DNA of 64,000 bases from Candidatus Bathyarchaeota archaeon (GCA_963833575.1 CAWHXY010000004.1:896001-960000); one strand, 5' to 3'. Counted from the first letter of the stretch, positions 49,012-56,790 are shown. A program made the numbers and translations. Notes: generated from the letters alone by a model not told the origin.

Positions 49012-49084
49012 GCGGTCGTAGTCTAGTTCGGTAGGACATCAGCTTCCCAAGCTGACGACCCGGGTTCAAATCCCGGTGACCGCA
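49012..49084 (+). tRNA. tRNA-Gly (CCC), no intron, CCA not encoded
   Basis: GCGGTCG/TGACCGC acceptor, TCAGC-TTCCCAA-GCTGA anticodon arm, CCGGG-TTCAAAT-CCCGG T arm. Confidence 0.97.
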
Positions 49085-49364
49085 CCTTAATTCACTAAAA
49101 GAAGCTGGCTTTGAGCTTATAGCGTCTTATTGAAATCCCTAAGAAACTTAGCCTTTGTATTAAAATTATTCAAGAAACCTGCATAACTGAGAATCACGCC
49201 TTGGTAAATCTTGGCTTTCTTCTGATTTGATCTTTCAATAAATATTTGTAATTTTAATCAAAGCTATCCTGATAACGCAAATATTCAATCTCTTTTTGGC
49301 TAAGGAACTTAATTTCAGGCGCAGTTGGTAGATGCAACGGTGAGTACCCTTTTTTCATGTGATC

Positions 49365-50345: not shown

Positions 50346-52979
50346 ATGGAAAAAACAAGAAATAGAATTGTAACTATTGTGATTGCGATATTTTTAATGA
50401 TTTCAATGTCAGCTTCGATAATGCTAGTGTCGAATGCTAGTGCTCATACTCCTGCTTGGCAGATTCCAACATACGCATATGTGCAGGCTGTGCCTAACCC
50501 TGTGGGTGTAGGCCAGCAAGCGATCATATATATGTGGGTTGACAAGATACCCGATGGAGCAGAACTAGGCAACAGCATTCGATTCCAGAACTACCAACTT
50601 ACCATTACTGCACCTGACAAAACAGTAACAACAAAGACTTTTGCAACTGTCCAAGATCCCACGTCAAATCAGCACTATTATTTCACTCCAACTCAAACCG
50701 GCACATACACCCTTAACTTTACATTCCCAGGATACGCATACACATATACAGGGCTCCTCGCAGGCTTCTTCGGTCCTCCCGCGCCAAGCGATTACGTAAA
50801 TGATACCTATTTGGCCAGTTCAGCATCTACAACGTTTACTGTCCAGAACTCAGCTATACCTACAATTCCAGCCAATCCGCTTCCATCAGCTTATTGGACA
50901 CGCCCAATTTATGGAGAGAACCCTAACTGGTACTCAATTTCATCAAACTGGCTAGGCATCAATGCACCAGGATATACTTCAGGTTACCCTGGTGATGCTG
51001 TGGGTCCTCAAACGGGCCATGTTATGTGGACTAGGTCGGTTCAAAGCGGTGGAGTGGTCGGCGGTAACAACTTTGAAATTCAAGGCGCCACTTACTTCGA
51101 GGGTTCTGCCTACGCTCAAAGATTTGAAGAACCAATAATACTTGATGGAAAACTCTACTATGCAGAACCAATATCGTTCGGGGGCAACAACTACGGGCCA
51201 ACGGACTGCGTTGATCTGCGCACTGGACAGCTTATTTGGTCTCGCACTGATGTACCGCAGCCATCCTTCGGTCTCATATTTGACGTTCAGGAACCCAACC
51301 AACACGGAACTTACCCACCAATACTAATTGATGCTGTTGGGCAAAGCTTCTTTTCGACTGCGTCTGTCTGGAGAGCTTTTGATGCAGACACAGGAGATCC
51401 GATGTTCAACGTAACTAACATTCCTTCAGGCGTAACGGCTATGGGCGCAAATGGGGAATACTTGATATATGTCTTGACAAATGATGGCACTGTTGCACAT
51501 CCTCAGTATTATTTAGCTCAATGGAACTCGTCTAACCTGTGGTCCGGTCAATACAACGGCGCATCAACAACACCATCCGTAGTTCCACCTATAACTGACG
51601 GGAGCAACCCCCTTATGTACGACTGGAACATTTCGATACCCTCACTAAACACCCTGACCTCAACATCTTCTATAGTTGCAGCGTTCACCAACAATATGCT
51701 GATTGGCATGAGCGGCTCCTACCCTGGAGCTCCTAGTTTGTTCAGTGTAGCAAGCTGGTCTCCCTACACATACTTCGGTGTAAACCTTAACGCTACTAAA
51801 GGTGCAGTCGGTTCGATACTGTGGACAAATACTGTTCAACCGCCAGCGGGCAATATTAGTGTCTCATATGCCGGGGCTGATCCAACGGTCGGTGTCTTCG
51901 CTGAAACATATAAGGAAACGATGCAGCGAGTAGGCTTCAGTATGGCGACAGGCAAGCAAATTTGGGGTCCAGTTGGCGATCAAGTGGCCTTCCAATACTA
52001 CAGCACTACTGGATACTACAGCGGCGGAATAGGCGGATGCGTACTTGCTTACGGTAAACTCTACAGCGCTGGATATGGCGGAATAGTCTACTGTTATGAT
52101 CTGAACAATGGGAACCTACTTTGGACTTATGGTAATGGTGGCGAGGGCAACAGTACTAGTATGGATTATGGTGTACGTGGTAACTATCCAACTAGCATAT
52201 ATGCGGTTGGCAACGGCGTGGTGTACACGATTACTACGGAGCATACTGTTCAAACACCAATTTACAAGGGTGCAGAGACACGCGGCATTAACGCTACAGA
52301 CGGAACGGAAATCTATACTCTCGATGATTACTGTGGCTCGTTTGCTACTGCAACAGCTGCTATCGCAGACGGCTTTGCAACAGTTTTCAATGGCTATGAT
52401 AACCAAATTTATAGCATAGGCAGAGGACCTAGCGCCTTAACAGTAGAAGCGCCAAAGACATCAAACGAACTGGGCAAATCGTTGGTAATTGACGGTTCAG
52501 TACTGGATATTTCTGCAGGTACAAAACAGGCACAGCAGGCAGCTGATTTCCCTAACGGTGTTCCAGTGGCATCTGACGCGAGCATGAAGGATTGGATGGG
52601 CTATGTTTACCAACAGAAACCCTTGCCCAGTAACTTTACTGGTGTTCAGGTGACGATCGACGTTTTAGACTCTAATGGCAACTACCGAAACATTGGCACT
52701 GTTAATACTGATGCAACCGGCATGTACAGTTTGTCTTGGAAACCTAACATTTCAGGCAACTACACTGTCGTCGCTACTTTCCACGGCACCAACGCTTATT
52801 GGCCATCGTATTCAGAAACCACTTTCGTAGTAGATCCGGCAGCAGCTACACCAGCTCCAACGACAGCGCCAGTAGCTTCAAACACTGACACATACATTCT
52901 GGCTTCAGCTATCGCAATCATAGTCGTGCTAATCATCGTGGGCGCAATCCTGATGATGATGGTACGCAAACGACCATAA
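50346..52979 (+). CDS. Large secreted PQQ-like beta-propeller surface protein, paralogue 1
   Basis: Signal peptide, PLP..YWTRPIY, propeller repeats, C-terminal Ig-like region, TM, RKRP tail. Confidence 0.9.
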   Translation: MEKTRNRIVTIVIAIFLMISMSASIMLVSNASAHTPAWQIPTYAYVQAVPNPVGVGQQAIIYMWVDKIPDGAELGNSIRFQNYQLTITAPDKTVTTKTFATVQDPTSNQHYYFTPTQTGTYTLNFTFPGYAYTYTGLLAGFFGPPAPSDYVNDTYLASSASTTFTVQNSAIPTIPANPLPSAYWTRPIYGENPNWYSISSNWLGINAPGYTSGYPGDAVGPQTGHVMWTRSVQSGGVVGGNNFEIQGATYFEGSAYAQRFEEPIILDGKLYYAEPISFGGNNYGPTDCVDLRTGQLIWSRTDVPQPSFGLIFDVQEPNQHGTYPPILIDAVGQSFFSTASVWRAFDADTGDPMFNVTNIPSGVTAMGANGEYLIYVLTNDGTVAHPQYYLAQWNSSNLWSGQYNGASTTPSVVPPITDGSNPLMYDWNISIPSLNTLTSTSSIVAAFTNNMLIGMSGSYPGAPSLFSVASWSPYTYFGVNLNATKGAVGSILWTNTVQPPAGNISVSYAGADPTVGVFAETYKETMQRVGFSMATGKQIWGPVGDQVAFQYYSTTGYYSGGIGGCVLAYGKLYSAGYGGIVYCYDLNNGNLLWTYGNGGEGNSTSMDYGVRGNYPTSIYAVGNGVVYTITTEHTVQTPIYKGAETRGINATDGTEIYTLDDYCGSFATATAAIADGFATVFNGYDNQIYSIGRGPSALTVEAPKTSNELGKSLVIDGSVLDISAGTKQAQQAADFPNGVPVASDASMKDWMGYVYQQKPLPSNFTGVQVTIDVLDSNGNYRNIGTVNTDATGMYSLSWKPNISGNYTVVATFHGTNAYWPSYSETTFVVDPAAATPAPTTAPVASNTDTYILASAIAIIVVLIIVGAILMMMVRKRP

Positions 52980-53035
52980 AAAAAGGAAAACAAAAACAAA
53001 AACAACATTTCCCCTTTTTTAGTCTTAAAACAAAT

Positions 53036-53173
53036 GGAGAACAAATTCGGGCTGAGTAGGTTCTGGTTAAACTCACGATACGTGACATAGGATCGTTGAG
53101 AATTTTGCATTTTTTCTTTTTCTCCTAAAAGAAAATTTTTCTGTCCAGAACCTCAGCAAACCCTAAATTCTCC
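53036..53173 (+). ncRNA. Structured repeat element, copy A
   Basis: GGGCTGAGTAGGTTCTGG (53049-53066) pairs with CCAGAACCTCAGCAAACCC (53145-53163); outer GGAGAA/TTCTCC; inner CTCACGAT/ATCGTTGAG hairpin. Confidence 0.65.
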
Positions 53174-53348
53174 AATTTAAATTTAGAATCGGCACCATTT
53201 TGGTTTCAAATTCCACGGACCTGCCGTAAAGAAAATAGATCAGCTTTTCTCCAACTCAGCAAAAATTGTCAGAAATGACACTGGTTGCCAACTTTTAAAA
53301 AGCTGTTTGAAGCAATTAAAACAGTGAAGGAAAAAGCTTAAAATAAGC

Positions 53349-53445
53349 GCTGAATAGGTTTTGGTTTGATCATTATGGTGCAATCGTGATAGTTGACTCG
53401 TATTTGGTTTGTTTTCTCTTAAAGTTTCCAGAGCCTCAGCAAACC
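53349..53445 (+). ncRNA. Structured repeat element, copy B (more diverged)
   Basis: GCTGAATAGGTTTTGG pairs with CCAGAGCCTCAGCAAACC using two U-G wobbles; inner ATCAT/GTGAT hairpin. Confidence 0.55.
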
Positions 53446-53507
53446 TTTGAGGTTACTATTTTTTGGAAACAAAACAAGATTTTTTCTAAACTTTGCGAAG
53501 GCGGTTT

Positions 53508-53528
53508 GGAAGAAGTGGAACTTGTTAC
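53508..53528. promoter_or_regulatory. Second copy of the propeller-gene operator (GGAAGAAGT-GGA-ACTTGTTAC)
   Basis: Same right arm and similar spacing to a TATA-like box as at 50264-50284. Confidence 0.6.
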
Positions 53529-53592
53529 AAAGGCTTAAGCGCACTTTTGGTGTCTAGCATTTTCTAGCTCAATAAAAAATGAAGGAAAAAAA

Positions 53593-56175
53593 ATGAAAAA
53601 CAGAAAAATGAAAAACAGAAAATTTATGCTATCTCTAATTCTCATGATAGTGCTAAGTATGTCAATGATGATGCAAATTCCTCATACTGTACATGCGGCA
53701 TCTACGCTTAATGTGACAGACTATTTGTATGTCAGCGCTGGGCCTAGTCCTGTAGGCGTTGGACAAACCATATACCTTAACCTCTTCTTCACTAAGCCTA
53801 TACCCACAGTCAGCGGTTTCGTTTCTACATTGTACACTGGTATGTCAATCAATGTTATCAAGCCAGATGGAACTAATGAAACTCTCGGACCTTACACGGC
53901 TGATACTACGGGCGGTGTTGGAGGACTTTCATTCGCACCTGCTACAGTTGGAAACTATACTTTCCAAGGAATATTTCCGGGGCAAAATATAGGGACCGAT
54001 GCTACGGGCACGACCTATATTATGGATGCTTCCAATAGCCCTCCTGTTTCAGTTGTCGTTCAACAAGGGCAAATATCGTATAATTCTGGCTCTCCGCTCC
54101 CAACAAACTACTGGACACGCCCAATATACGCATCGAACTTTTACTGGCAAACTATTGGTGGAAACTGGTACGGTTTAGGAAGACCCGCCTTCGACAACAC
54201 TGGTGGATACGATGGAACTGGAAACAACTTCCAACAATACAGCACTGCGCCAACTACTGCTCACATACTTTGGACTAAGGCAACAACAACCGGAGGTCAA
54301 CCTGGCGGCGAAACTATCGCTAATGAAGAGAATGCTTACTCAACAGCATCCCCGCTCTACCACCTATTTGAACCAATAATTCTCAATGGAGTACTTTATG
54401 AAAACTTGTGGGCAGCTCAAACCGATAACGCAGGCATTATTGCAATAGACCTCCGCACAGGACAAACATTGTGGGATCAGAACACTTCTGACGTCTTAAT
54501 TTATGGTCAAGTTGTAAATTTCCACAACAATGAAGAATTTGGCTCTCAAGCATTTCTATGGACATCGCATTTAGCCGGCTATGACGGCATGGGTATGTTT
54601 GGCCCAAATGCAGTCTACGATTATAATATATTGGATCCAGTGACTGGAAATCAGATGGCTACCGTAACCGATGTTCCCAGCAGCATAGCTAATCTCTTCG
54701 GAACATCACCAAGTGCACTTATAGATTCCAATGAAACCAATACCTCAGGAGCAATTCTAATCTACTATTTAGGCGACAGCAATAATCTAATAATGTGGAA
54801 CTCAAGCCAATGTCTTAGTCCTTCCGGCGGATTCGGATCACCCACAGGCTCTTACAAGCCATCAGGATCCTACAACTTTACAGCAGGCATACAATGGTCA
54901 ATCACGCTTCCTAACGCAAACCCAGCATTTGGCATCGCTGAGATGAATAATCAAGCAATACTTTTGAGTTCACATCCACCGACACTTTCTACGTTTGCCG
55001 ACCAATTTGGCGCTGATTTTGCAACTGATGTGGCCTATGATCCCGCTACTGGCGCTAAGCTTTGGGGACCAACTAACCAGACGACAACGAACTTTGATGA
55101 CGTTGGAATAGTTGCTGTAGGAGATGGTGCATACGTCAGACATGACAAAGACACAAATCAACTCTATGGCTACTCACTGACAACTGGCCAACTGCTCTGG
55201 GGACCAACACAACTCGTAGGAAACGCTTTGACCCATCTTTTCGCTTCTGCTGCTATAGCTTACGGTAGAGTTTACATTTGGGACTTCGGCGGCTACGTAA
55301 ATGCTGTTGATCTCAAAACTGGAAAACTCGACTGGACCTACACTCGCGGATCAGCAGGTTATGACACACCCTACGGCATATATCCAATCTGGGTCTACGG
55401 AACACAAACCATTGCTAACGGAATGCTGTTCCTCTCTGAAGGTCGACTATATGATCCACCGCTGTTTCCAGGCGGAGAAAAACTCGCGATAAACTGCACT
55501 GATGGTTCACTTGTCTGGGCAATAAGCGGAGCATTCATGAGATCGCCAAGCCCTGTTGCTGATGGAGAACTGCTTGGATTTAACGGCTACGACAGTCAAA
55601 TATACGCTTTCGGCACTGGACCAACAAGAGTTGCGGTCAATGCACCTGATCCTGTTACGTCTGTAGGTTCGCCTATGATCTTACGCGGCACAGTCACTGA
55701 CATCTCCAGCGGCTCACAACAAGAAGCAGTTGCAGCAAACTTCCCTAACGGGTTACCATGCGTTTCTGACGCTAGTATGACTTCATTTATGGAAGCCGTT
55801 TACGAACAGCAGCCAATGCCAACCAACATTACAGGTGTTCCTGTTACGGTAAGTGTTACTGACTCGAATGGAAACTGCTACAGCATAGGCACTACTTCAA
55901 CTGATCCAAGCGGCATGTTCACGCTAACTTGGGCACCTACAATCTCAGGTAACTATACCGTAACCGCATCGTTTGCAGGCACGCAATCGTATTATTCATC
56001 TTCCGCGGAAACATCCTTCTATGCTACTGCTGCTCACCCAGACACTGCTGCTCCAACAGCTACACCTGTCTCAATTGCTGACCAATACTTCATCCCGCTG
56101 TCAATCGCAATGATTCTCGTAATAATCATAATTGGCGCCATACTTGCAGTACTGTTGCTAAGAAAACGACCATAA
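53593..56175 (+). CDS. Large secreted PQQ-like beta-propeller surface protein, paralogue 2
   Basis: Same architecture as 50346-52979 (YWTRPIY, A.FPNG.P..SDASM, RKRP). Confidence 0.9.
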   Translation: MKNRKMKNRKFMLSLILMIVLSMSMMMQIPHTVHAASTLNVTDYLYVSAGPSPVGVGQTIYLNLFFTKPIPTVSGFVSTLYTGMSINVIKPDGTNETLGPYTADTTGGVGGLSFAPATVGNYTFQGIFPGQNIGTDATGTTYIMDASNSPPVSVVVQQGQISYNSGSPLPTNYWTRPIYASNFYWQTIGGNWYGLGRPAFDNTGGYDGTGNNFQQYSTAPTTAHILWTKATTTGGQPGGETIANEENAYSTASPLYHLFEPIILNGVLYENLWAAQTDNAGIIAIDLRTGQTLWDQNTSDVLIYGQVVNFHNNEEFGSQAFLWTSHLAGYDGMGMFGPNAVYDYNILDPVTGNQMATVTDVPSSIANLFGTSPSALIDSNETNTSGAILIYYLGDSNNLIMWNSSQCLSPSGGFGSPTGSYKPSGSYNFTAGIQWSITLPNANPAFGIAEMNNQAILLSSHPPTLSTFADQFGADFATDVAYDPATGAKLWGPTNQTTTNFDDVGIVAVGDGAYVRHDKDTNQLYGYSLTTGQLLWGPTQLVGNALTHLFASAAIAYGRVYIWDFGGYVNAVDLKTGKLDWTYTRGSAGYDTPYGIYPIWVYGTQTIANGMLFLSEGRLYDPPLFPGGEKLAINCTDGSLVWAISGAFMRSPSPVADGELLGFNGYDSQIYAFGTGPTRVAVNAPDPVTSVGSPMILRGTVTDISSGSQQEAVAANFPNGLPCVSDASMTSFMEAVYEQQPMPTNITGVPVTVSVTDSNGNCYSIGTTSTDPSGMFTLTWAPTISGNYTVTASFAGTQSYYSSSAETSFYATAAHPDTAAPTATPVSIADQYFIPLSIAMILVIIIIGAILAVLLLRKRP

Positions 56176-56237
56176 AAACACCAGACAAAAACAAAAAAAA
56201 AAATCACATCCCTTTTTTTTAGTTTTGAAAAAGCAAT

Positions 56238-56368
56238 GGAGAAAAAATTGGGCTGAGTAGGCTCTGGCTAAGATTCACGAGATAGCAATAGTTCGTGATA
56301 GTGCAGTTGCATTTGTGTTTTTATCCTTTATTTTCTGCGCCAGAGCCTCAGCAAACCCTGAATTCTCC
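56238..56368 (+). ncRNA. Structured repeat element, copy C
   Basis: GGGCTGAGTAGGCTCTGGC (56250-56268) pairs with GCCAGAGCCTCAGCAAACCC (56339-56358); outer GGAGAA/TTCTCC; inner TCACGA/TCGTGA. Confidence 0.65.
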
Positions 56369-56561
56369 AATTGAAATTCAAGACTCGAATCCTTTTGGTT
56401 CAAATTCCATCACAATCGCCGTAAGGGAAAAAAACTTGTTTCTGAAATAGTGTCGTCAATGACGTGGGACTTGAACCGTTCAGATTTAACTCTCTTTGAT
56501 TACATCAATTTCCCAAAAAAACGGGTTTCATATTTAGAAGTGATTTTTCGATCTTTGTATT

Positions 56562-56790
56562 CTACAGAGGAATTATTTCGGCGTCTGCGCAACCGCTGAC
56601 TATTTTGGTGATTCTTACTTTTACGTGTTCGTTAGCTTTTGCATTGCCGATGAAGACTGGAAAACCTTTGATTTTGGCTATGCCTTCTCCGTTTGGGCTC
56701 ATATCGACGACGTCCACTTCATATTCGTCTCCAATTTCAAAGGGGTAATCAATTCCTCTGCCTCTATTTTTGGCATTTCTTGGGGCTCGT
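56562..56790 (-). CDS. Stand-alone TRAM-domain protein; no canonical in-frame start found upstream of the domain
   Basis: Manual translation PFEIGDEYEVDVVDMSPNGEGIAKIKGFPVFIGNAKANEHVKVRITKIVSGCADAEII; absent from ORF track. Confidence 0.7.

Follow-up and report, generated by a model that had tools for sequence, protein, structure and literature searches.

In archaea the known substrates of the splicing endonuclease EndA are tRNA introns, rRNA, the cbf5 mRNA and a single Haloferax 5' untranslated region (UTR), that of HVO_1309, whose mRNA falls under EndA repression (PMC7714728, in the excerpted text). The same excerpts describe a Haloferax survey of circular RNAs (circRNAs) with seven circles flanked by bulge-helix-bulge (BHB) motifs, one of them outside tRNA and rRNA (PMC7714728). 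Bathyarchaeia possess EndA, RtcB and BHB-dependent circular rRNA (excerpts of PMC12918454). Excerpts of another paper describe circular omega-RNAs of IS200/IS605 that have no BHB, and a tRNA-Trp intron that serves as a C/D box RNA (PMC12558985). Our literature search, made largely at title level, returned no description of a conserved, multi-copy, mRNA-linked BHB family. Here we examine a candidate for such a family in a 64,000-nucleotide (nt) stretch of DNA from Candidatus Bathyarchaeota archaeon (GCA_963833575.1 CAWHXY010000004.1:896001-960000, hereafter the window), which holds three copies (A, B and C; Table 1) of a structured element beside two genes for large surface proteins. Window positions equal the coordinates of contig C4 of this 2.75-Mb genome (G000) minus 896000. 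What is new here is that the predicted excised part of the element carries the reverse complement of the gene family's own Shine-Dalgarno-to-start-codon region, with a perfect match of up to 25 nt. We consider it probable that the BHB-bounded element is excised as a circular RNA antisense to the ribosome-binding sites of its host family, controlling translation initiation. We take as firm the existence of the family with its fold and strand, the geometry of its BHB, the genes for the enzymes and the complementarity of the antisense box.

A repeated RNA family closed by a bulge-helix-bulge

A reading of the window made from the sequence alone (the sequence-only reading) had described a three-copy element and proposed an unrecognised noncoding RNA family. 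Its three copies lie where it placed them, each as a covariance-model match, but the genome holds 27 copies instead of three. This number was obtained with nhmmer at E<1e-5, likewise with BLAST, and again with the covariance model R1 (built from alignment A2 and trained on this single genome), which gave 27 matches at E<=3e-10, the next match having E=0.16. The copies are dispersed over 4 contigs; most are 70-83% alike (69-83% to copy C) and differ by compensatory changes. No Rfam family matches them, so the description as unrecognised stands: at the gathering threshold of Rfam 15 only a tRNA-Gly (49012-49086) passes in the whole window, and an E-value scan of 52900-56700 gave best matches of E 6.4-8.3, far below threshold.

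Outside this genome, R1 matches were found in 21 of 24 other genomes of the window's genus (1-23 copies each), in all 6 sampled genomes of a second genus, which belongs to another family, and, with a single genome taken per genus, in 9 of 60 genera from the family of the window; 35 genomes from 19 further genera of the second genus's family gave none. Since genomes were sampled and R1 was trained on one of them, "not found" by R1 does not equal absence. An exact 18-mer from the 3' strand occurs at no fewer than 120 loci in the species-genome collection. Among the matches listed, 80 of the first 100 loci, which were those tested, were R1-positive, nearly all of them titled Bathyarchaeota or Bathyarchaeia metagenome-assembled genomes (MAGs), and none of 10 bacteria-labelled loci was. 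Two loci with the exact 18-mer belong to one MAG titled 'Candidatus Acidoferrum sp.': DATIXS010000127.1 (L158) is a strong R1 match, and the title looks wrong; DATIXS010000099.1 (L167) stood outside the loci tested with R1. Element subtypes are common to several species. We also noted tandem arrays in which 2-3 elements of different subtypes, ~30-150 nt apart, resemble a small polycistronic array (L187, L189, L192, L194, L195, L206 and L209 in the second genus; L045 and L059 in the window's genus). The downstream subtype of such tandems has its own outer helix, GAAUG/CAUUC, and a C that replaces U before CAGC and is paired with G.

Because RNAalifold on a MAFFT alignment gave part of the closing stem only, hairpin indels being misaligned, the structure was set by hand and then refitted with the covariance model. 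In the 27 copies, 90.4% of cells are paired compared with 85.7% in shuffles, and 14 pairs show double changes; four of five measures were reached by 0 of 500 shuffles and the fifth by 1 of 500. A larger alignment of 90 copies, from this genome, 22 relatives of its genus and 6 genomes of the second genus, was fitted to the model and gave 90.1% of cells paired (79.4% in shuffles), with double changes in 24 of 26 pairs (240 cells); here 0 of 500 shuffles reached any of the five measures, and registers slid against each other paired only 34-48%. The covariation that the sequence-only reading had asked for in a larger alignment is thus strong. All 9 pairs of the 9-bp inner helix show double changes, and two covarying hairpins lie within the predicted excised part. 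A GGAG leader upstream of the element, considered as a partner of an internal UUUUCUCC tract, was rejected, variants such as GGCG being uncompensated (by eye).

The features that had been read from the three copies are visible in the alignment: the shared GCTGA-RTA-GGYTYTGG ... CCAGARCC-TCAGC-AAA-CC ends, the inner hairpin, the U-rich tract and the compensatory stem change GGTTCTGG/CCAGAACC versus GGCTCTGG/CCAGAGCC. Copy B does require U-G wobbles, two in number, which had been taken to favour a plus-strand RNA. In the family as a whole, ~136 of 2138 paired cells (summed over the per-pair table) are G-U and would be A-C on the opposite strand. These pairs agree with the handedness of the BHB (below), and because of both the folded strand is the plus strand, sense to the upstream gene. 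Folding energies do not discriminate the strands (z-scores -2.9, -2.8 and -0.3 for plus; -2.9, -4.2 and +0.8 for minus).

By its predicted fold the closing stem is a canonical archaeal BHB. The 5' strand reads, in order, GGG (outer helix), GCUG (central helix), A-R-W (bulge) and RGGCUCUGG (inner helix); the 3' strand reads CCAGAGCCY (inner), CAGC (central), AAA (bulge) and CCC (outer), with GGG/CCC replaced by GAAUG/CAUUC in one subtype. For these ends we counted pairs ungapped, outward and inward from fixed anchors and independently of the model fit, which was feasible for 90 of 92 copies. The central helix is GCUG/CAGC in 79 of 90 copies, its variants GUUG/CAAC and GCCG/CGGC being compensatory. 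The 5' bulge is AGU in 29 copies, AGA in 27, AAA in 25, AAU in 5 and otherwise in 4, and the 3' bulge is AAA in 87; both are present in each of A, B and C. As the sequence-only reading had it, there are two 3-nt bulges on opposite strands, each 3' of its strand of the central helix. Its registers (a 5-bp GCUGA/UCAGC helix, or CUGA/UCAG with a CAA bulge) do not hold. The first inner pair covaries (A-U in 66 anchored copies, G-U in 12, G-C in 9, unpaired in 3), whereas the A that a 5-bp central helix would need is invariant and would face C in ten copies; the central helix is therefore exactly 4 bp, GCUG/CAGC, and the bulges, A-R-W and AAA, exactly 3 nt. The motif is compact, with ~20 nt of fixed ends around a ~90-nt cargo.

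Two substrates in the same genome provide a comparison. Its 16S processing stem runs outer, CUCC, AAA, inner on one side and inner, GGAG, CAA, outer on the other, the topology of the element, and its tRNA-Arg(CCG) intron (ucggc-cucc-gg|A-CGCUUC...GAAGCG-GGAG-UU|a-gccga) is cut after the second nucleotide of each bulge. The element has the handedness of both, and its reverse complement the opposite one. In the second genus, 10 of 34 copies have an outer helix of 7-11 contiguous pairs, and the flank duplex has a mean of -7.58 kcal/mol compared with -4.17 for shuffled flanks. The host has two open reading frames (ORFs) of ~200 amino acids (aa) with an EndA domain (PF01974 at 96 and 70.5 bits; G000 regions C7:351219-351458 and C6:37209-37463) and one RtcB ORF (588 bits). 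Two EndA subunits would imply a heterotetramer of broad specificity, and the two separate EndA-domain genes seen here fit such an enzyme. ARAGORN predicted that 8 of 44 tRNA genes contain introns, of which several occupy non-canonical positions and the longest has 81 nt. The 16S rRNA gene itself lies outside the window (G000 C4:51208-52702, minus strand); its long flanking processing stem bears a canonical BHB, CUCC-AAA / GGAG-CAA, and a circular pre-16S stage is expected in this organism, a stage that a recent paper reports in only some Bathyarchaeia.

Surface genes and the antisense box

Linkage of the element to surface-protein genes, noted for the two paralogues of the window, is kept in two genera. 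Eighteen of the 27 copies sit 55-70 nt past the stop codons of genes for surface proteins of 825-1074 aa, on the same strand; A and C, which had been placed shortly after their paralogues, start 64 and 69 nt downstream of the stop codons. By their tails we recognised 32 paralogues of at least 800 aa, 17 with an element and 15 without. The second genus shows the same arrangement of gene and element despite diverged protein tails (..LKRK*) and a diverged T-run tract, and a second element of another subtype often follows ~30 nt after the first. A search with 52500-53900 for an empty orthologous site, covering 30 genomes of the window's genus, matched paralogous gene tails and elements only.

Within the predicted excised part, a conserved hairpin loop UUUGCAUUU, its 3' arm and the single-stranded UUUUCUCCU together form the reverse complement of AGGAGAAAA(G)AAAA-AUG-CAAA. 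The surface paralogues typically show just this arrangement of Shine-Dalgarno sequence, spacer, start codon and second codon; at most of the 32 paralogue starts (U)AGGAGAAAAGAAAAAUG precedes CAA or AAA. When exact antisense matches to element interiors are ranked by length over the whole genome outside the elements, the top four (25, 24, 19 and 19 nt) each fall on the initiation region of a surface paralogue. For a 22-nt probe taken from copy A, the median pairing energy was -16.1 kcal/mol across the 32 initiation regions of surface genes and -6.7 across 1806 other ORF starts, of which only 2.3% reach -16.1 kcal/mol (Mann-Whitney p 2.5e-9), and surface genes make up 18 of the best 45.

The match is maintained where both partners differ. 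The second genus has GGUUUUUUCAUUUUUUCACCUUC in its elements and GAAGGUGAAAAAAUGAAAAAAC at the starts of its surface genes, each distinct from the window's genus and yet matching the other. Element-to-target duplexes average about -20 kcal/mol compared with -12.1 for shuffled targets. In the complete genome G040 the 22-mer GAAGGTGAAAAAATGAAAAAAC has 13 places at three mismatches or fewer, its reversed control 0; by coordinates, seven of the places lie in known elements, antisense, three at surface-gene starts (one with 0 mismatches) and three are unassigned.

Back-joined contigs and the competing explanations

The cut rule predicts an excised RNA that ends ...CAGCAA and begins (U/A)RGGCUC, and we searched for the predicted junction register alone. 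The relaxed pattern GAGCCTCAGCAAWRGGCTC occurred at 32 metagenome loci, of which 29 are unrelated chance matches, as are both viral-collection loci with this pattern. The remaining three match R1 and are back-joined: Ga0265604_100698 (L229, 3240 nt), Ga0257136_1003727 (L243, 2955 nt) and Ga0257144_1002231 (L245, 3017 nt). The region of interest in each comprises, in order, the end of a surface gene (...RKRK* or ...KKQK*), a CCCTCCC-T-run-GGGAG tract, the 5' half of the BHB and an interior of ~105 nt; CAGCAA is then joined directly to (T/A)AGGCTC, and the interior repeats with a period of 105-106 up to the stop of the contig. The junction of L243 and of L245 reads CAGCAA|TAGGCTC, and since their 5' bulge is AGT the join can be placed exactly, behind the second base of either bulge; the bulges of L229 are A-runs, which settle no more than the total. 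The sides of the join share no repeat able to mislead an assembler. In 25 species genomes of the second genus, matches to L229 or L245 end by query position 312-314, the join, and none crosses it. Each of the three contigs is about one gene plus flanks in length, with the locus at the contig end, and they look like transcripts whose back-joined path outweighed the linear continuation. The back-joined form at the predicted cut sites supports, in these relatives, a circular RNA of ~105 nt. Circles of ~85-100 nt had been proposed for the window's copies, to which the relatives' joins would extend by homology.

Computed as a circle, the RNA folds into a rod that the inner helix closes, and a loop of 7 nt contains the join. 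The circles of C, B and L245, like C folded as a linear RNA, are predicted to leave the anti-Shine-Dalgarno tract single-stranded. A takes the tract up into a hairpin, as its loop and arm, and L229 and L243 engage it in a GGAGG/CCUCC stem.

Ten metatranscriptomes were consulted (each 5-7% of sampled words), of which four, from peat or permafrost, were analysed as contigs. The contigs cover the genes, come mainly from relatives and are mostly 90-95% alike. The joints 53138>56332, 56280>53099 and 53135>53425 were rejected as traces of processing, since they are other copies aligning partly to A, B and C. The bin 56084-56317, which runs from the end of paralogue 2 across the T-run and a third of the way into element C, has a summed contig depth of 1189 compared with at most 355 in other bins (permafrost metatranscriptome run X1); the contig behind it is absent from the listed pieces. 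This depth, and the back-joined path taken by the assembler in the three contigs of relatives, are no more than hints that the RNA may accumulate.

We propose the following course of events. The element is a conserved structured RNA, located mostly in the 3' UTRs of genes for large, C-terminally anchored surface proteins of Bathyarchaeia. EndA would cut after the second nucleotide of each 3-nt bulge and RtcB would join the ends, producing a rod-like circular RNA of ~90-105 nt and a re-sealed mRNA. The box of the circle could then pair with the Shine-Dalgarno, spacer, start codon and second codon of the same surface-gene family, and the outcome would be antisense control of translation initiation across the paralogues, in trans by the stable circle or in cis before excision. 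For copy A, excision is predicted from the cut rule of the tRNA-Arg intron in this genome together with the joins in relatives; we infer that A and C are processed like the relatives' copies, while processing of B is less likely because its outer helix is missing and its box degenerate. The complementarity suggests that pairing of the box regulates translation, whether in trans or in cis. A wider circular-RNA network, in which every active surface gene sheds from its 3' UTR, through EndA, a stable circular antisense RNA that blocks the ribosome-binding sites of the whole paralogue family, is a possibility that we entertain with some doubt. If it exists, surface-protein expression would feed back on itself and dampen or exclude others, amounting to dosage control or surface variation.

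Several observations weigh against excised antisense circles. Whole interiors used as probes gave -19.3 kcal/mol compared with -17.0 for other genes, a small margin; A-rich, Shine-Dalgarno-bearing leaders are common and pair with the box to some degree. Because the margin shrinks with whole-interior probes, we place the specificity in the box, a portion of which pairs within the element's own hairpin. An element shows no preference for the initiation region of its own gene (own-gene ranks 1-12 of 12), and 9 of the 27 copies have no adjoining surface gene. The outer helix is short in the window's genome: of the 27 copies, 7 have 2 pairs (A and C among them), 12 have 3 and 5 have more, while 3 copies have fewer than 2; B has no contiguous outer pairs. 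The strict junction pattern of the window's type had 0 matches in Joint Genome Institute (JGI) metagenome contigs, and the three back-joined contigs are all of the second genus's type and may stem from RNA or DNA libraries. The four metatranscriptomes contain no skip or back-join at the predicted sites of A-C, in contigs that come mostly from relatives and cannot show RNA ends; the missing join is no evidence either way.

The circle could instead be a by-product, the element acting in cis as a 3'-UTR intron whose box pairs with the gene's own 5' initiation region or marks the mRNA for decay, so that removal by EndA switches translation or stability. The element is co-linear with the gene, the contigs of relatives run from gene into element, and complementarity of the box would be the same as for an excised antisense RNA. 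The other known EndA substrates besides tRNA and rRNA are also mRNA introns, in cbf5 and in the 5' UTR of HVO_1309 (excerpts of PMC7714728). Even so, we think this account rather unlikely: elements match their own gene no better than other paralogues, the nine copies that lack an upstream surface gene and the tandem element pairs of the second genus do not suit it, and conservation and covariation of the interior exceed what a removable spacer needs. Some of these contexts, with the presence of many copies over 4 contigs and the patchy taxonomic spread, would be expected of a mobile or formerly mobile repeat, either one like a miniature inverted-repeat transposable element (MITE) or a BHB intron spreading by reverse splicing and reverse transcription, its position then reflecting target preference or co-duplication. 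Transposition of tRNA introns has been proposed for Thermoproteales. One copy (L297; IMGVR_UViG_3300033977_000275, 1632-2047; R1 58.7 bits) lies on a contig filed as viral, in the ordinary order of surface-gene 3' end, T-run and element; this contig is more likely to be a piece of a cellular genome or the flank of a provirus than a sign of mobility. We regard mobility as quite improbable. Inspected by eye, the 27-copy alignment with flanks lacks target-site duplications and any terminal inverted repeat other than the RNA stem itself, different species share subtypes, and the linkage to gene family and strand is kept in two genera despite diverged coding tails and T-run regions. There was no recent burst, because most copies are 70-83% alike with compensatory changes.

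The sequence-only reading had also offered a DNA-level site, a folded single strand analogous to attC, to which an inverted repeat that recombines or inverts surface genes may be added. The element does follow ORFs, it is an imperfect palindrome with extrahelical bases, and box and initiation region form inverted repeats flanking each gene; surface genes do recombine, because a 99% identical copy of the coding sequence of paralogue 2 exists elsewhere in the genome. Such a site is nevertheless highly improbable. The G-U pairs counted above are strand-specific, the relatives' join falls inside the bulges, where an RNA endonuclease and not a recombinase would cut, inspection by eye revealed no attC core sites, the 99% copy has its boundary elsewhere than at the element, and the metatranscriptome contigs report no strand-changing joints at these places. 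Scarcely credible, finally, is a role for the minus strand as the source of a small peptide or of a decoy start site. GGAG, an A-rich spacer and ATG can be read on that strand in 23 of 27 copies, but the frames have 8-80 codons and stop at varying places, the peptides agree only at the conserved RNA stems, hairpin indels are not multiples of three, and the G-U pairs and BHB handedness fit the plus strand only. A minus-strand ORF of 104 codons (52796-53110), which starts at the ATG mirroring the hairpin loop of element A and runs into the end of paralogue 1, is most likely spurious, because equivalent frames elsewhere have 8-80 codons.

Excision as an antisense circle thus remains the explanation we prefer. 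It upholds the main inference of the sequence-only reading, which was wrong in copy number and in the register of the 4-bp helix and missed the antisense match; none of the outcomes which that reading had named as counting against it (an Rfam match, a MITE end or missing covariation) occurred.

Window features and comparison with known systems

The features are collected in Table 1. Paralogues 1 and 2 are a tandem pair, with element B between element A and paralogue 2, and each encodes a PQQ-type beta-propeller, an immunoglobulin-like domain and a C-terminal membrane helix ending RKRP (Pfam and inspection of the tails). The similarity of A and C had been said to run on past the element; it does continue, but that part is merely the tandem duplication of gene plus flank.

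Table 1. Positions of the surface genes, elements and associated tracts, counted from the first letter of the window
Feature	Position	Strand	Details
Surface-protein paralogue 1	50346..52979	+	877 aa; element A in its 3' UTR; from ORF list, Pfam and tail
TTTCCCCTTTTTTAGTC tract	53008..53024	+	between paralogue 1 stop codon and element A
Element A	53044..53167	+	full covariance-model match, 103.7 bits, E 1e-19
Element A, helices	outer G53049-G53050 with C53161-C53162; central 53051-53054 / 53154-53157; inner 53058-53066 / 53145-53153
Element A, bulges	5' 53055-53057; 3' 53158-53160		5' AGU; 3' AAA
Predicted excised circular RNA of A	53057..53159	+	103 nt; predicted cuts 53056|53057 and 53159|53160
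Antisense box of A	53104..53128	+	TTTGCATTTTTTCTTTTTCTCCTAA; reverse complement of Shine-Dalgarno - spacer - ATG CAA initiation region
Element B	53342..53450	+	weaker copy; covariance model 71.4 bits
Element B, central helix	53349-53352 / 53437-53440
Element B, bulges	53353-53355; 53441-53443		AAU; AAA
Element B, inner helix	53356-53364 / 53428-53436		includes two U-G pairs
Predicted excised part of B	53355-53442	+	88 nt
Antisense box of B	53400-53424		degenerate: ATA replaces ATG; minus strand without SD..ATG
Translation initiation region of paralogue 2	53563..53598	+	..AATGAAGGAAAAAAA ATG AAA..; putative target class of antisense box
Surface-protein paralogue 2	53593..56175	+	860 aa; architecture as paralogue 1; element C in its 3' UTR
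CATCCCTTTTTTTTAGTT tract	56207..56224	+	between paralogue 2 stop codon and element C
Element C	56245..56362	+	covariance model 109.5 bits, E 5e-21
Element C, helices	outer G56250-G56251 with C56356-C56357; central 56252-56255 / 56349-56352; inner 56259-56267 / 56340-56348
Element C, bulges	56256-56258; 56353-56355		AGU; AAA
Predicted excised circular RNA of C	56258..56354	+	97 nt; predicted on the same grounds as A; circular fold computed
Antisense box of C	56306-56329	+	GTTGCATTTGTGTTTTTATCCTTT

An A-rich spacer followed by TTTCCCCTTTTTTAG stands after every surface paralogue, element present or not; all 32 paralogues keep the spacer and T-run, and the TTTCCCCTTTTTTAGTC tract is common to paralogues with and without a downstream element. 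The counterpart in the second genus (e.g. L188, L193) is a hairpin, CCCTCCC - T-run - GGGAG, whose loop holds the T-run. Contigs of relatives pass through the equivalent T-run tract into the element, and because of this read-through the tract is a leaky terminator at most. The 99% identical copy of paralogue 2 lies on another contig (G000 C7:124157-126736) with unrelated flanks and no element after it. The identity starts near the initiation region of paralogue 2 and stops ~15 nt past the stop codon; it looks like a recent gene conversion or duplication of the coding sequence alone, and it is uninformative on mobility of the element because the homology ends where it does.

As it stands, one uncultured soil and peat lineage has dozens of predicted canonical EndA sites per genome, formed by one conserved RNA family tied to one gene family. 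The predicted excised RNA mirrors the ribosome-binding sites of the host genes, a concrete hypothesis for a role of archaeal circular RNA, which circRNA surveys have left open, and one that bears on how the abundant, uncultured Bathyarchaeia manage ~30 large surface proteins. If the hypothesis is true, archaea would have their first conserved family of circular RNAs with a regulatory function, and EndA substrates other than tRNA and rRNA would grow from a few single cases to dozens of sites per genome.

The element shares with MITEs, repetitive extragenic palindromic (REP) elements and attC sites that it is a short repeated palindrome downstream of genes. We rejected a MITE (no terminal inverted repeats or target-site duplication by eye; copies 69-83% alike to copy C) and an integron attC (no R''/R' core sites by eye; host genes of 2.5-3.2 kb, dispersed; an integrase was not searched for). 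Danan et al. in 2012 reportedly found archaeal circular RNAs by circRNA-seq. With the circles from such surveys the element would have in common a small circular RNA, some of those being BHB-dependent (excerpts of PMC12558985). The BHB introns and stems processed by EndA and RtcB (tRNA, 16S/23S, cbf5 of Crenarchaeota, HVO_1309) have the same two 3-nt bulges, 4-bp central helix and handedness, with flanking helices, of which the outer one of the element is short in this genome; they also have the join after the second bulge nucleotide with a circular excised piece, which for the element is supported by the relatives' contigs. The element differs from them in lying in 3' UTRs and intergenic DNA rather than in tRNA, rRNA or coding sequence, in its near-invariant bulge and central helix, and in a predicted excised part that is conserved, structured and antisense to a gene family. 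Against the seven BHB circles of Haloferax (excerpts of PMC7714728), there are 27 copies per genome here.

The tRNA-Trp intron with its C/D box small RNA (sRNA) is likewise a useful small RNA obtained by BHB excision from a host transcript (excerpts of PMC12558985). For the element, in contrast, the host is an mRNA 3' UTR, and the complementarity is to mRNA initiation regions and not to modification sites of rRNA or tRNA. We rejected the element as a C/D box sRNA: by eye there is no RUGAUGA/CUGA K-turn pair, the sole CUGA forms Watson-Crick pairs in the central helix and would stay behind in the 5' exon, and the Rfam scan of 52900-56700 gave no C/D family. In bacteria and archaea, 3'-UTR-derived and trans-acting antisense sRNAs block ribosome-binding sites. 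The element shares with them an origin at the mRNA 3' end and a pyrimidine-rich seed, predicted to be exposed, that is complementary to the Shine-Dalgarno and start region; it would differ in being released by a splicing endonuclease rather than by RNase E or termination, in its proposed circular product, and in having as targets the host gene's own paralogue family, with many paralogous copies of the element per genome.

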